Origin: Escherichia phage WPEC2
Sequence record: PV691511.1
DNA: 64,000 bases
Strand: one strand, 5' to 3'
Every line of letters starts with the position of its first letter. The stretch's first letter is position 1. The notes beneath the pieces are model-generated. The model was not told where the DNA came from, ran no database searches, and was given only the letters and a program-made list of their open reading frames with translations. Positions 5,478 through 35,480 of this stretch are shown here, piece by piece. Both the position numbers and the translations under genes were made by a program.

Positions 5478-5522
5478 TATTAATCTCCTATGTTTAAGAA
5501 ATGCCCCCGAAGGGGCAGTTTG

Positions 5523-6215
5523 TTAAATAGCGGTTTCTTCGAAATCCGCCACATTTACGAGATTAATATTTTCAGATTTAGAAGTCAAGTTGTTTTCTGC
5601 AACAGATTTTTCTTCAGTATCCGCCTCGTTACCTGCCACGTTACGAGGTTCTTCTTCACCGTAGGGATTACCGAATTTCAAAAGATTGATTAATTCTTCT
5701 TTGGAGAAGTTTTCTAAATCATCATCTGTTAATTCAATAATCTCATCTTGTTCTTCAATAAATGTTTCACCACCAGAAAAAGCATCTCGCTTTTTAGCTA
5801 CTTCCATAGCCTGTTCTGGTGTTGCTCCTGCATCAAGAGCAGCTAAAGCAAAGTCTGACCCGCTTCCTACCGCATAATATTCTTCATCAATCGGATATGC
5901 ACGTGTTGGGTTGTTACCTTCGTGCAGGAAAATACGTCCATCTGGATGAACAACAAGTGCAATAAACTCTTCATCTTCTTTATCTGGATCAGAGTGAATC
6001 ATCAAACCAGGGACAGCATCACGTGCTGCTTCGCACTGTAGATTTTGTTCAAACCATTGAAAGAAAGAAAGCACGGAGGTCAGACGACCAGCACCACCTA
6101 CAAGGTAATCTCCAATTTTTCGGACCTTTTTGAAATTAATAGAATCTACACGTCCACCAAAAGTTACCTTACCGTCACTCAAAATCTTATTTTTGGTCGC
6201 AATAATTGTCGTCAC
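5523..6215 (-). CDS. HslV/proteasome beta-type Ntn-hydrolase peptidase with acidic C-terminal tail
   Basis: N-terminus MTTIIATKN (Thr right after Met), GGAG and AVGSGSDFALAALDAG segments resembling HslV. Confidence 0.55.
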   Translation of the reverse strand: MTTIIATKNKILSDGKVTFGGRVDSINFKKVRKIGDYLVGGAGRLTSVLSFFQWFEQNLQCEAARDAVPGLMIHSDPDKEDEEFIALVVHPDGRIFLHEGNNPTRAYPIDEEYYAVGSGSDFALAALDAGATPEQAMEVAKKRDAFSGGETFIEEQDEIIELTDDDLENFSKEELINLLKFGNPYGEEEPRNVAGNEADTEEKSVAENNLTSKSENINLVNVADFEETAI

Positions 6216-6718
6216 TATTCTTCCTCCTCTGTTAATGTTTTAAGAACCGCTTTCCCGCCATTCACATATTTGCAGATGTATTCTATCGCACGTAGTGTCT
6301 CTTTGTCAACAAAAATTTGATCAGACGTTGCGAGCGGGTTATTAAGAAGATCACTGCAATCACGAACAAGCAGTGCTTTCTTATTAAACAAATTACTTAA
6401 GAACAGTAACTTCGCCTCTTCTTCTGTTATGTGCAGAAGGCTAGGATCGGAGCCAGCTATTCCTATTATACAATCAAACAAGCTTTCTTTACTATCAGAA
6501 AGTTCTTGAAAATGGTTTAAAAGCCAATCTTCTCCTAGACACCAACATTTAAACATTTCCAGTTTATCTCGGAGGGTCATATTCTCTAAAGTAAGAGCAA
6601 TCTCTTTTTCAATATGGTTTACACAAATTTGACGAAATTCGTTAGGTTTTACGAGTCCCGTTTGATAGCACTCATCTATACCGCTTCTTCCGATAGCTAT
6701 TGTTGCTACACCCATCAA
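6215..6718 (-). CDS. hypothetical protein
   Basis: 167 aa ORF. Confidence 0.5.
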   Translation of the reverse strand: MMGVATIAIGRSGIDECYQTGLVKPNEFRQICVNHIEKEIALTLENMTLRDKLEMFKCWCLGEDWLLNHFQELSDSKESLFDCIIGIAGSDPSLLHITEEEAKLLFLSNLFNKKALLVRDCSDLLNNPLATSDQIFVDKETLRAIEYICKYVNGGKAVLKTLTEEEE

Positions 6719-6750
6719 TCCTCCTTATAAATGGCTTCCCTGCCACATTA

Positions 6751-7509
6751 TTAAATAAACACTTCAGTAATCAGTTTAGACAAACGTCCACGTTTATTAT
6801 CGTCCGTTGTCAGTTCAACATATCCAATAAAATCTACAATTGGCTCACGAACACCCTCTTCATTCTCTGGATATAAAAGTTCCAAAATTTGATGCAGACC
6901 ATTGCTACGTTTTTTAATTGCATATGTCTGGCGAACATCGCCTAATACAATAACATGCGTATTAATACCTGCACGTTCAATAAGAAGTTTAAGTGTTTCT
7001 GTTGACATAAGTTGTGCTTCGTCAATAATGACGATTGTATTATCCAGGGTAGCCCCCAACAAATAGTTAGGAATATTCAATTCGATTTTACCTGATCCAA
7101 TATCGTTTTCCAATTTGTTGGCTGTCATGAATTGCTGGAAAATACGTTTTGTAGATTCATAGTGTGCTGCTAGTTTATCTGTTTTATCCCCAGACAAGAA
7201 ACCAATCTGGTCATCTCCGACTTCAGTAGGGTTCTTGATAAAAAGTAGTTTACGGAAGTCTCCTGAACGAAGCATCTGCAAAGCTTTCCATAAAGCAACA
7301 GAGGTTTTACCAGTCCCTGCCGGAGCATTTACAACAGTCAGATCATTCCAAATCATGCTTTGAACAATCTTATTTTGGTCCCCTTCAGGCATAAATTCAT
7401 CTAAACGGTAATCGTCATTACCTACCGCTTTTGCTGCATAACGGCTTTCAATCTTTGCTGAATTAGCCAGTTTCTGCCGTTGTGTTTTAGCTGCGGTTTT
7501 ATTTCCCAT
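6751..7509 (-). CDS. phoH: PhoH-like ATPase
   Basis: Walker A NAPAGTGKTS; start moved to internal Met (MGNKTAAK) which has AAGGAG RBS and lies below the GGGGC-CGAA-GCCCC hairpin. Confidence 0.8.
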   Translation of the reverse strand: MGNKTAAKTQRQKLANSAKIESRYAAKAVGNDDYRLDEFMPEGDQNKIVQSMIWNDLTVVNAPAGTGKTSVALWKALQMLRSGDFRKLLFIKNPTEVGDDQIGFLSGDKTDKLAAHYESTKRIFQQFMTANKLENDIGSGKIELNIPNYLLGATLDNTIVIIDEAQLMSTETLKLLIERAGINTHVIVLGDVRQTYAIKKRSNGLHQILELLYPENEEGVREPIVDFIGYVELTTDDNKRGRLSKLITEVFI

Positions 7510-7546
7510 AGTAGCACTCCTTTTAGAAGGGGCCGAAGCCCCTTTA

Positions 7547-33858: not shown

Positions 33859-34452
33859 TTACACCTTAAAAGCGAAATGCGTGGTCGTGGCTTCAAAATC
33901 AGGGCCAGATAAACTTGCACTGAAATCTGAAATATTTGTAATTAAAAAGCTTTTATGCATACCTAACACAGCCACGCTTTCAATATCTTCTACTAACATT
34001 TCAATCATGTTAGAAACATGGCTGAACGTATAGTTTTGTTTTTTGATGGTGTAGAAAGAAAGACTCCCACCTGCTGTATAAGATACCTCTTCAAAATCTT
34101 TAATCGTATATTGTGTGCCATCAGTAAAGAAAATGGTAGCTTTATTAGTGGCACGTTTCTTGTTTTTTGGTCCTTTTTTACGTTTACTGCGAGTAGGCAA
34201 ACCGTTTGGGAACACCGTAGCTACAAATTCTTCAGGGGAAACCTCCTTACCGAAATCATAACCGTAAGAAACAGCGTCTATAAACTCGTCGTCTTCATTT
34301 TTAAAATAATGAAAATAGGGCCAATTTGAGAGATTATCGAGCATCTTATGCTCATCCACAGCAGAGAACGTATCCCTCAAAGCACGTGTGATTTGCAAAG
34401 CATTAGGCAAACTTTTAACACCTGTAATGGAAGTACGAATAGAAATTGTCAT
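33859..34452 (-). CDS. hypothetical protein
   Basis: 197 aa ORF. Confidence 0.5.
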   Translation of the reverse strand: MTISIRTSITGVKSLPNALQITRALRDTFSAVDEHKMLDNLSNWPYFHYFKNEDDEFIDAVSYGYDFGKEVSPEEFVATVFPNGLPTRSKRKKGPKNKKRATNKATIFFTDGTQYTIKDFEEVSYTAGGSLSFYTIKKQNYTFSHVSNMIEMLVEDIESVAVLGMHKSFLITNISDFSASLSGPDFEATTTHFAFKV

Positions 34453-34466
34453 TGTTTTTCTCCTTA

Positions 34467-34904
34467 TTAACGTCGCTTGCTACGAGATGAACTCTTTTTA
34501 CTTAAAGGGCTATTGTAAGATTTACGAGTTGTATAGCTACTATTTGTTTTAAAAGTTTGTCTCGGCTTTTCATAAGTTTTTATCTCTTGTTTAGGCTTAC
34601 CATAAAAATTAGTTTTCGGTTTAGGTATATTATAATGCTTGTTAATAATCGTTCTGTTATCGTTATAATCCCCGCCACTACGATTACTACCACCGCTCAT
34701 CATATGTCCTAACAACATACCTGTAGCAAACTCACCAACACCACTACTACTAGAACCGCCACCATTGTTGATAATAGTCGTATCCCCGTCAGATCCTTGT
34801 TGAGCGTATTGTTGAGGAGGTTGTTGATATTGTGAAGGATTTGTTTCATCATCGCAAGCTGTTAAAAAGATACAACCAATTAAAATCAGGGCCAGTTTTT
34901 TCAT
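34467..34904 (-). CDS. lipoprotein, G/S/N-rich with basic C-terminus
   Basis: start moved to Met of MKKLALILIGCIFLTAC (lipobox LTAC) with GAGGA RBS. Confidence 0.5.
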   Translation of the reverse strand: MKKLALILIGCIFLTACDDETNPSQYQQPPQQYAQQGSDGDTTIINNGGGSSSSGVGEFATGMLLGHMMSGGSNRSGGDYNDNRTIINKHYNIPKPKTNFYGKPKQEIKTYEKPRQTFKTNSSYTTRKSYNSPLSKKSSSRSKRR

Positions 34905-35091
34905 ATTTGCTTTCCTCATTTTGACTATTAATACATCTGTGTTTGAAATCTCCAGAGAAGCAATAAAGTTGCTCTCCATCTCGGTATAAACTCACTTTAC
35001 TGCCGTTGATTACGCTTGTCAATACAAAAATTACAACAAACAACCCTATTGCAAAACAGATATTTTCAAACACAACCAACAAGTATTTCAT
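34849..35091 (-). CDS. small membrane protein
   Basis: 80 aa, hydrophobic helix LLVVFENICFAIGLFVVIFVL; overlaps lipoprotein start. Confidence 0.35.
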   Translation of the reverse strand: MKYLLVVFENICFAIGLFVVIFVLTSVINGSKVSLYRDGEQLYCFSGDFKHRCINSQNEESKYEKTGPDFNWLYLFNSLR

Positions 35092-35438
35092 TTTAAAAAT
35101 ACCTCATCATCAGTTTCATTATCCCAGAAGAACAAATCCCAACCATTCGGATCATTCCATTTGGCTGCTGGAGAAGTCCATATTTGTTCGATATCAATAT
35201 TCAAAACTTCACCGTTCCGTTTTGAAACAGCTTTAGTTAATTCCCAACGAGATACAGGTTCCACTTCTCCTGAACCACTTCCACAACAAGCTACCACATT
35301 AGGAGGCAAATTAATTGGATCTTTGGTCACAATCATAACGCTTACCCCAGGGTAAACTTTTGAAAGATAATCTGAAACGTAATCCACATCACCAGATAAA
35401 TCCCAAATAAGTTCTTGAATTTCATCAAAATTACTCAT
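35088..35438 (-). CDS. hypothetical protein
   Basis: 116 aa ORF. Confidence 0.5.
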   Translation of the reverse strand: MSNFDEIQELIWDLSGDVDYVSDYLSKVYPGVSVMIVTKDPINLPPNVVACCGSGSGEVEPVSRWELTKAVSKRNGEVLNIDIEQIWTSPAAKWNDPNGWDLFFWDNETDDEVFLK

Positions 35439-35480
35439 AAGTCTCTCCTATAAAATAGCCTCCCGAAGGAGGCTCATCTA

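Follow-up and report, generated by a model that had tools for sequence, protein, structure and literature searches.

Short G+C-rich hairpins recur at gene junctions in a 64,000-nucleotide stretch of Escherichia phage WPEC2 (PV691511.1), and this whole stretch is called the window hereafter. The hairpins follow stop codons on the mRNA strand, their tetraloops are of the UNCG or GNRA class on that strand, and they are conserved in related phages with interchanging loops and covarying stems. Judged by their sequences, they form a continuum from canonical terminators to hairpins with no U tract and are not a separate class. They are probably modules of graded-strength intrinsic terminators that also cap the 3′ ends of the mRNA. 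The window was placed by megablast in the genus Phapecoctavirus (subfamily Stephanstirmvirinae, phAPEC8-like Escherichia coli myoviruses of about 150 kb), with 97–100% identity to dozens of records. Its gene map was transferred by BLAST from the annotations of phages anhysbys and WPEC6, and the rest was filled from open reading frames (ORFs), giving 110 genes. The genes at 1-29303 and 33109-49938 are read leftward. The tRNA cluster at 30763-32688 and everything from 49999 onward (terminase, portal, capsid and tail genes) are read rightward. Most gene pairs are tightly packed or overlapping and have no hairpin, and the intergenic share is 5.4% in the well-annotated part of the window.

The original prediction had listed seven hairpins as recurring at gene junctions. 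All seven sequences are present in the window and all seven are intergenic on the transferred map. Two of the seven positions were exact, and the other five were off by 1, 1, 4, 6 and 11 nucleotides (nt). The true spans are 5503-5516, 7529-7542, 11811-11824, 35457-35474, 2608-2623, 2890-2905 and 21232-21248, and the outer stem limits are 5502-5517 for the first and 7527-7544 for the second. On the minus-strand RNA four of the loops are UUCG and the others are GUAA, CGUAAC and UUUAC. The sequence at 2608, GGGGCGTTACGGCCCC, is no 6+4+6 palindrome; it forms a stem of 5 base pairs (bp) with a loop of 6 nt. The spacers that hold the seven hairpins are 37–56 nt long and each is flanked by two leftward genes. 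On the minus-strand RNA the hairpins start 2–8 nt 3′ of a stop codon and end 14–30 nt 5′ of the next start codon. Only a Shine–Dalgarno (SD) sequence lies between hairpin and start, and it is strong before all of the downstream genes. No promoter was seen between the hairpin and the next SD at these junctions. Therefore, no hairpin of this kind can be a full stop.

The four UUCG hairpins are all on the minus strand. The first, UGCCCC-UUCG-GGGGCA at 5502..5517 with the tail UUUCUUAA, is located 5 nt past the stop of a gene for an HslV-like peptidase (5523-6215) and 24 nt before the start of a 144-amino-acid ORF (5043-5477). The second, AAGGGGC-UUCG-GCCCCUU at 7527..7544 with the tail CUAAAAGG, is found 2 nt past the lysozyme stop (7547-8047), and the PhoH start (7509) is 17 nt further on. 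The third, AGGGGC-UUCG-GCCCCU at 11810..11825, is followed by UUUUUAUU and has the shape of a canonical intrinsic terminator; the nrdA stop (11833) is on one side of it and the nrdB start (11788) on the other. The fourth, AGCCUCC-UUCG-GGAGGCU at 35457..35474, begins 6 nt past the stop of a membrane-protein gene (35481-36455) and has the tail AUUUUAUA. The remaining three are also on the minus strand, each 8 nt past a stop and each without a U tract. They are GGGGC-CGUAAC-GCCCC at 2608..2623, GGGGCG-GUAA-CGCCCC with a GNRA loop at 2890..2905, and GCCGCCC-UUUAC-GGGCGGU at 21231..21249, which is upstream of an RdgC-like gene.

The enumeration of GC stems and the test of enrichment at gene junctions, both suggested with the original prediction, were carried out, and GC hairpins are enriched at the junctions. 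The window has 38 perfect hairpins whose stems reach 5 bp or more with at least 4 GC pairs, where dinucleotide shuffles have 11.3 ± 3.3. For stems of 6 bp or more with at least 5 GC pairs the numbers are 17 and 1.1 ± 1.1. The excess over the shuffles corresponds to z = 8 to 14. In the well-annotated part of the window, 14 of 26 such hairpins are intergenic (binomial p = 1e-11). A hairpin with a folding free energy (dG) of -8 kcal/mol or lower occurs within 40 nt past 16 of the 110 stops, against 0.9% of random coding windows. The values are 14 of 110 against 0.4% at a cut-off of -10 kcal/mol and 13 of 110 against 0.13% at -11 kcal/mol (p = 1e-21), and p ranges from 1e-14 to 1e-21 over the three cut-offs. 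The hairpin observation is thus confirmed and is statistically strong.

The strand on which the hairpins act was tested by loop class, since the stem of a DNA palindrome is symmetric but its loop is not. In ViennaRNA a hairpin has almost the same energy in its sense and its antisense form, so an energy asymmetry is uninformative. Each of the seven intergenic tetraloops in the window belongs to the UNCG or GNRA class when read in the sense direction, and the antisense reading gives neither class for any of them. UNCG and GNRA together make up 4.6% of sense-strand 4-mers, and the chance of seven out of seven is about 5e-10. When the unique hairpins of the window and its relatives are pooled, the sense strand has 14 UNCG and 8 GNRA loops, the antisense strand has 0, and 21 hairpins have neither class. 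The stems of the relatives also contain G-U pairs, which would be A-C on the other strand. The asymmetry of loop class indicates that the elements function as RNA on the mRNA strand, and the earlier proposal that they act on the transcribed minus strand agrees with this. The census also bears out the UUCG-type tetraloop as the signature of the set. UUCG is closed by C-G on the sense strand at 5503, 7529, 11811 and 35457. Outside the C(UUCG)G form are the hairpin at 4067, which has a U-G closure, and those at 21232 (UUUAC), 2890 (GNRA) and 2608 (hexaloop). The sole CUUCGG hairpin that reads antisense, GACCC-UUCG-GGGUU at 49575-49590 (+), is imperfect and has a G-U pair. Its site is a spacer between leftward genes, close to the right edge of the inserted block described below.

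Conservation was examined in relatives with 50–90% amino-acid identity, namely the IMG/VR loci L004-L009 and L017-L021 and the phages Paula, phiWec181, Tr1, FKP3 and KKP_3264. Sequences were taken 3′ of the stop codons of orthologous upstream genes. The loci retrieved with NrdB have a small ORF between nrdA and nrdB, and the junctions were therefore anchored on the stop of the upstream gene. In Stephanstirmvirinae relatives with about 70% nucleotide identity, the hairpin is kept at orthologous junctions. Its loop is variously UUCG, GAAA, GCAA or GUAA, and compensatory substitutions are found in its stem. At the lysozyme-PhoH junction the GGGGC/GCCCC stem is constant and the loops are UUCG, GCAA, GUAA, GAAA or GUCAU. 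At the HslV-like junction both parts vary, with stems of GCCCC, ACCCCC, AGCCC, UGCCUC or AAAAAUGCCC and loops of UUCG, GCAA, UCAA, UCAC or UUAG. The nrdA junction has the loops UUCG, GAAA and UUU in the window and its relatives. Four relatives keep the hairpin of the membrane-protein junction (35457) with UUCG or UCCG loops and altered stems. A UUCG tetraloop replaces UUUAC in the orthologue of 21232 in L021, the orthologues of 17930 have UUCG or GAAA loops, and that of 2890 in phage Schickermooser has a GCAA loop. The relatives also keep the U-rich tails of the nrdA and 17930 junctions. At the HslV junction 9 relatives retain a hairpin. An alignment of nine distinct sequences from this junction, which was loop-centred on the hairpin and is hence biased towards structure, has 93.7% of its cells paired against 38–62% in slid controls. 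Both sides have changed in four of its seven pairs, and no shuffle reached the observed covariation score. Both the slid controls and the independent junctions speak for a real covariation signal. The overall pattern in the aligned sequences indicates that selection acts on the pairing and the loop class and not on the sequence.

A further conserved hairpin lies within the nrdA coding sequence. It is the perfect GGGAUAC-CACA-GUAUCCC at 13796-13813 (-), which encodes the peptide GGYHSIP and is conserved in the relatives. In L008 and L014 a paired change of UAC to UAU and GUA to AUA is found, the second of which costs a Ser-to-Asn replacement. This paired change is a single event and may be coincidental.

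The likeness of the set to terminators was then judged by hairpin and by tail. The hairpin of an intrinsic terminator is expected to have a stem of 4–17 bp, a loop of 3–10 nt and a dG below about -7 kcal/mol (10.64898/2026.05.29.728758). All of the listed hairpins are within these limits, with stems of 5–11 bp, loops of 3–8 nt and dG from -7.7 to -14.7 kcal/mol. A U-rich tract of 7–8 nt is present at 11811, 17930, 41927, 1282 and 62239, weak at 5503, borderline at 7529, 35457 and 4067, and absent at 2608, 2890 and 21232. The statement that most of the seven lack a T-run is therefore roughly right: the tract of 11811 is clear (a canonical U5), that of 5503 is weak though usable, those of 7529 and 35457 are borderline, and the other three clearly have none. 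A terminator consensus scan returned 22 and 25 sites against about 11.5 expected from shuffles, and its sense-strand matches include 11810, 17930, 5502, 35457, 20266 and 1282. The d'Aubenton-Carafa discriminant, applied here with Turner-2004 energies so that its zero point is approximate and its values are indicative only, is clearly positive for 11811, 17930, 41927 and 1282. It is positive, from near zero to moderate, for 62239, 1917, 5503 and 20266, borderline for 35457, 4067, 7529 and 61713, and clearly negative for 2608, 2890 and 21232 as well as for the promoter-following hairpins at 14772 and 36473. In the annotation of Schickermooser, the orthologues of 4067, 11811, 17930, 20266 and 1282 are given as "putative transcriptional terminator, determined by ARNOLD". 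No annotation is given in the same phage to the orthologues of 5503, 7529 and 21232, though they are identical or nearly so. The orthologue of 7529 in Paula has the tail UUUUAU and is annotated as a terminator. The view that the hairpins are unlikely to be terminators thus does not hold in general: it fails for some members (11811 and 5503 have a U tract, and orthologues of 11811 and 7529 are annotated as terminators), is correct for others and overlooks the gradient within the set.

We propose that these short G+C-rich stems of 5–9 bp on the polycistronic phage mRNA, mostly with UNCG (chiefly UUCG) or GNRA caps, serve as the hairpins of factor-independent terminators that act, with graded strength, on the host RNA polymerase. 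At members with a U-rich tail (11811, 17930, 41927, 1282, 62239 and weakly 5503), some of the transcripts would end. Members with a poor U tract or none (7529, 35457, 2608, 2890 and 21232) would terminate little. A hairpin at or near the 3′ end of an RNA would block 3′-to-5′ exonucleases, and the upstream cistron would thereby persist longer and be expressed more strongly than the downstream one. The position of the stems may add a further control. With the 5′ arm 2–8 nt past the stop, it would lie within the approximately 10 nt that are shielded by a terminating ribosome. When a ribosome follows close behind the polymerase, the hairpin would be unable to fold and the site would be leaky. Such leakiness would account for the transcription of promoterless downstream genes such as nrdB and phoH. 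The nrdB gene is downstream of the best terminator in the set and hence reliant on read-through. In a reporter study, the efficiency of a terminator dropped from about 90% to less than 10% when a stop codon was placed 5 bp upstream (Li et al., PMC4824070). The repression was ascribed to about 10 nt of mRNA shielded 3′ of the A site, and it was abolished by uncoupled translation (PMC4824070). Taken together, the stems 2–8 nt past the stop and the repression in the reporter study favour leaky, ribosome-sensitive, graded terminators.

Several points weigh against graded terminators. Because 2608, 2890 and 21232 have essentially no U tract, by classical rules they would not terminate E. coli RNA polymerase. 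The zero of the discriminant, as said above, is approximate. Gating by ribosomes is extrapolated from a single reporter study, in which another terminator was used. Schickermooser lacks the 5′ arm of 2608, and it is a close relative; therefore, this hairpin is dispensable there and not every member is needed. Finally, a literature search on Phapecoctavirus, phi92 and Stephanstirmvirinae found no transcriptomic, transcript-end or half-life data, so we infer both termination and stabilisation.

The reading of the original prediction was that the hairpins are elements for RNA processing or stabilisation. In its developed form, the U-less hairpins would not be terminators at all. They would act after transcription as barriers to 3′-to-5′ exonucleases and as boundaries of endonucleolytic processing, and would set the half-lives of mRNA segments. 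With 2608, 2890 and 21232 this agrees, since only 1–2 of the 8 nt in their tails are U and they score strongly negative as terminators, and ARNOLD left the Schickermooser orthologues of 5503, 7529 and 21232 uncalled. A selection for maximal stability by UNCG and GNRA loops is what an exonuclease block needs, and AU-rich single-stranded stretches suited to RNase E come after the hairpins. However, hairpins of this one type, placed alike, run continuously into canonical terminators, and the Paula orthologue of the U-poor 7529 has UUUUAU. Protection of a 3′ end also needs something that forms an end nearby. As an explanation in place of termination, this reading is somewhat unlikely. For the U-less members themselves (2608, 2890, 21232 and 7529), a processing or stabilising role is plausible from their sequences, and a protective or boundary role may be their sole one.

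Graded termination with capping might also be entirely dependent on translation throughout the lineage. In such an attenuation, termination and capping would take place only where the upstream gene is not translated close behind the polymerase, and the U-less members would perhaps act through a phage-modified host polymerase with a less strict need for a U tract. This extension is speculative and we consider it unlikely. If it is true, translation-gated attenuation would couple the stoichiometry of neighbouring genes (nrdA/nrdB, lysozyme/phoH) to translation.

A role in translation is quite improbable. A fast-folding hairpin could bar a terminating or scanning ribosome from sliding into the next cistron, or nucleate a local folding that keeps the next SD clear of long-range pairs. 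The constant spacing (2–8 nt past the stop and 14–30 nt before the start) and the strong downstream SDs suit such a role, and at several junctions a weak pairing is possible between the U/C-rich tail and the next SD. The first function suggested for CUUCGG hairpins was to nucleate folding (PMC4371310). However, these tail-SD pairings are weak and not conserved, and the conserved U-rich tails at the nrdA and 17930 junctions are left unexplained. Most of the tightly packed or overlapping gene pairs manage without a hairpin, so insulation is not generally needed.

The hairpins are very improbable as operators for a sequence-specific RNA-binding protein such as a RegA-like repressor or a nuclease. 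A GGGGC...GCCCC stem is common to several of them and a UUCG loop to four, but loop and stem sequences vary among the relatives and the pairing and the loop class alone persist. UUCG loops are said not to bind proteins (PMC4371310), stems of 5–9 bp are too short for RNase III, and there is no match to an Rfam family. DNA-level elements (cruciforms, recombination or nicking sites) or chance palindromes, which could be considered since perfect palindromes are symmetric in DNA and the window has repeats and rearrangement breakpoints elsewhere, are hardly credible and are already contradicted by the strand asymmetry of loop class (22 to 0), by the positions just past stops in the direction of transcription in leftward and rightward blocks alike, and by the compensatory changes, the G-U pairs and the z of 8 to 14 over shuffles.

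The covariance models of Rfam 15 were searched against the window at the gathering score, and 11 tRNA matches were obtained and none at the hairpins. A processing site for RNase III was rejected as a candidate because such a site needs a nearly unbroken RNA duplex of about 20 bp or more and the stems have 5–11 bp.

Tuerk et al. are said to have given the original report of T4 intercistronic C(UUCG)G hairpins in 1988. UUCG hairpins were first described in the mRNA of T4 (PMC4371310). The same procedure as in the window was applied to 1-50 kb of T4, where all genes are leftward. It gave 7 UUCG and 2 GNRA perfect hairpins, all of them sense and 0 antisense. T4 hairpins abut or overlap the stops of regA, soc, a-gt, a-gt.2 and 39.1, and their U tracts are mostly poor. 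The census also recovers the known bypass hairpin of gene 60. The T4 hairpin at 29952-29969 (AAGGGGC-UUCG-GCCCCUU), 2 nt past the regA stop, is identical in sequence to the one at 7527-7544 of the window. The WPEC2 hairpins are like the T4 ones in their short G+C stems, their C-G-closed UUCG loops, the sense strand, the stop-codon-adjacent position with an often poor U tract, and the polycistronic mRNA of a large virulent E. coli myovirus. However, the two phages are of unrelated families (Stephanstirmvirinae and Straboviridae) and the flanking genes are non-homologous. Therefore, the likeness to T4 is convergent and not inherited.

Stable tetraloops are reportedly over-represented in E. coli terminators, as d'Aubenton Carafa et al. 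found in 1990. The phage hairpins share with bacterial intrinsic terminators a G+C-rich hairpin with a dG below -7 kcal/mol and a loop of 3–8 nt downstream of a gene, and about half of the set has the U-rich tail. Unlike those terminators, several have no U tract, they are sited 2–8 nt past a stop, and the next gene is promoterless, so full termination would be harmful. REP (repetitive extragenic palindromic) elements of E. coli operons are intercistronic stem-loops that stabilise mRNA; they are longer, imperfect palindromes of conserved sequence that are repeated throughout the genome. The phage hairpins are likewise stable stem-loops between cistrons and could block 3′ exonucleases, raising upstream over downstream expression. 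Unlike REP elements, they are minimal units of 14–24 nt, and their common ground is only the stem composition and the loop class. The interchange of tetraloops in ribosomal RNA was reportedly noted by Woese et al. in 1990. As in ribosomal RNA, switching between UUCG and GNRA at a fixed position points to selection on loop class and not on sequence. The phage hairpins are isolated in mRNA spacers, in contrast to the ribosomal ones, which are part of a structural RNA with tertiary contacts. Both the GNRA and the UNCG classes are described in PMC4371310.

The hairpins thus belong to the long-known phage intercistronic hairpins and intrinsic terminators with UUCG or GNRA caps, and the finding opens no new kind of biology. 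Several orthologues are already annotated as terminators in related GenBank records, and only those with a U tract are so annotated. What is new is that the U-less half is conserved across the subfamily yet unannotated, and that the set was previously undescribed in this lineage. This has a value for annotation and engineering. About half of the conserved elements in Phapecoctavirus and Justusliebigvirus escape terminator predictors that insist on a U tract, and phages of these two genera are widely isolated for therapy. The swapping of UUCG, GAAA, GCAA and GUAA loops on covarying stems is a clean natural case of selection for hairpin stability alone. The constant spacing of 2–8 nt from the stop is a testable handle on how ribosome proximity may tune read-through in phage operons.

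Further members were found beyond the seven. In the leftward genes, a fifth UUCG loop is in AUACUCCCU-U(UUCG)G-AGGGAGUAU at 4067..4090 (-), which has the tail UUUUAAGG. The hairpin AGGGAGC-UUAUU-GCUCCCU at 17930..17948 (-) is followed by U6 and then by a TTGACA-17-TATACT promoter, and this region is a terminator-then-promoter module. Two others have the shape of canonical terminators: AAAGGCGCA-CUU-UGCGCCUUU at 41927..41947 (-), which comes after a 448-amino-acid ORF and is followed by U-rich sequence, and AGGGCGC-UUAAU-GCGCCCU at 1282..1300 (-) with the tail UUCUUUUU. The latter is the exception in spacing, at 15 nt after the stop, all others being at 2–8 nt. A hairpin with a long U tail at 1917 is also in the block of leftward genes. 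In the rightward late block, CGGGGG-UUAAG-CCCCCG at 61713..61729 (+) is 3 nt past the tail-sheath stop, and the GNRA-capped AAAGGGCA-GAAA-UGCCCUUU at 62239..62258 (+), followed by UUAUCAUU, comes after a structural gene next to the tail sheath.

Some hairpins follow promoters. In 20251-20322 (-), the hairpin GCCUACCU-ACUUAAUG-AGGUAGGC at 20266..20289 (-), with U5 immediately behind it, comes directly after a sigma-70-like promoter (TTGACT-17-TATTAT). A start site about 7 nt past the -10 box would be inside the 5′ arm. Upstream transcripts could be terminated here, and transcripts born at the promoter, which would be without the 5′ arm, could escape. This layout is kept in L004, L005, L006 and L008 with compensatory and G-U changes in the stem. 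Two strong U-less hairpins at 14772-14793 and 36473-36491 (-) are located 12–14 nt past good sigma-70-like -10 boxes, at predicted transcript 5′ ends. They look like stabilising hairpins of 5′ untranslated regions and not like junction hairpins.

The gene order of the window at 33271-49936 and 1-3110 is collinear with none of more than 60 related genomes. The segments 3260-33270 and 49937-53664 adjoin directly in phage anhysbys; therefore, the 16.7-kb block between them (nrdD, nrdG and a helicase) is an insertion or a translocation. This block is 100% identical to 117005-133682 of WPEC6. A rightward terminator at 33242-33272 (+), after a gp272 homologue, is exactly at the left edge of the block. 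It consists of CCCCUCUCC-GAAA-GGUUAGGGG with two internal mismatches and then C and U8, and it is thus GNRA-capped with a perfect U tract. Segment 1-3110 maps to the genome end of WPEC4 and WPEC6 in reversed orientation. The non-collinear order could be a real rearrangement or an artefact of assembly or permutation. The sequences at 3102-3259 and 10030-10185 are copies of a repeat of about 155 bp, and one of them adjoins the 1-3110/3260 breakpoint. In WPEC6 the repeat has at least 10 copies in both orientations in the 142–148 kb region.

In the tRNA cluster, an eleventh tRNA at 31460-31544 (+) was detected by Rfam (39 bits) and was unreported by ARAGORN. T-arm-like hairpins at 31212-31228 and 32578-32596 fall outside the called tRNAs. 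The homologue of anhysbys gp193 at 9882-10204 (-) is not one ORF here and is open only at 10070-10204, which is probably due to a frameshifted gene or a sequencing error.

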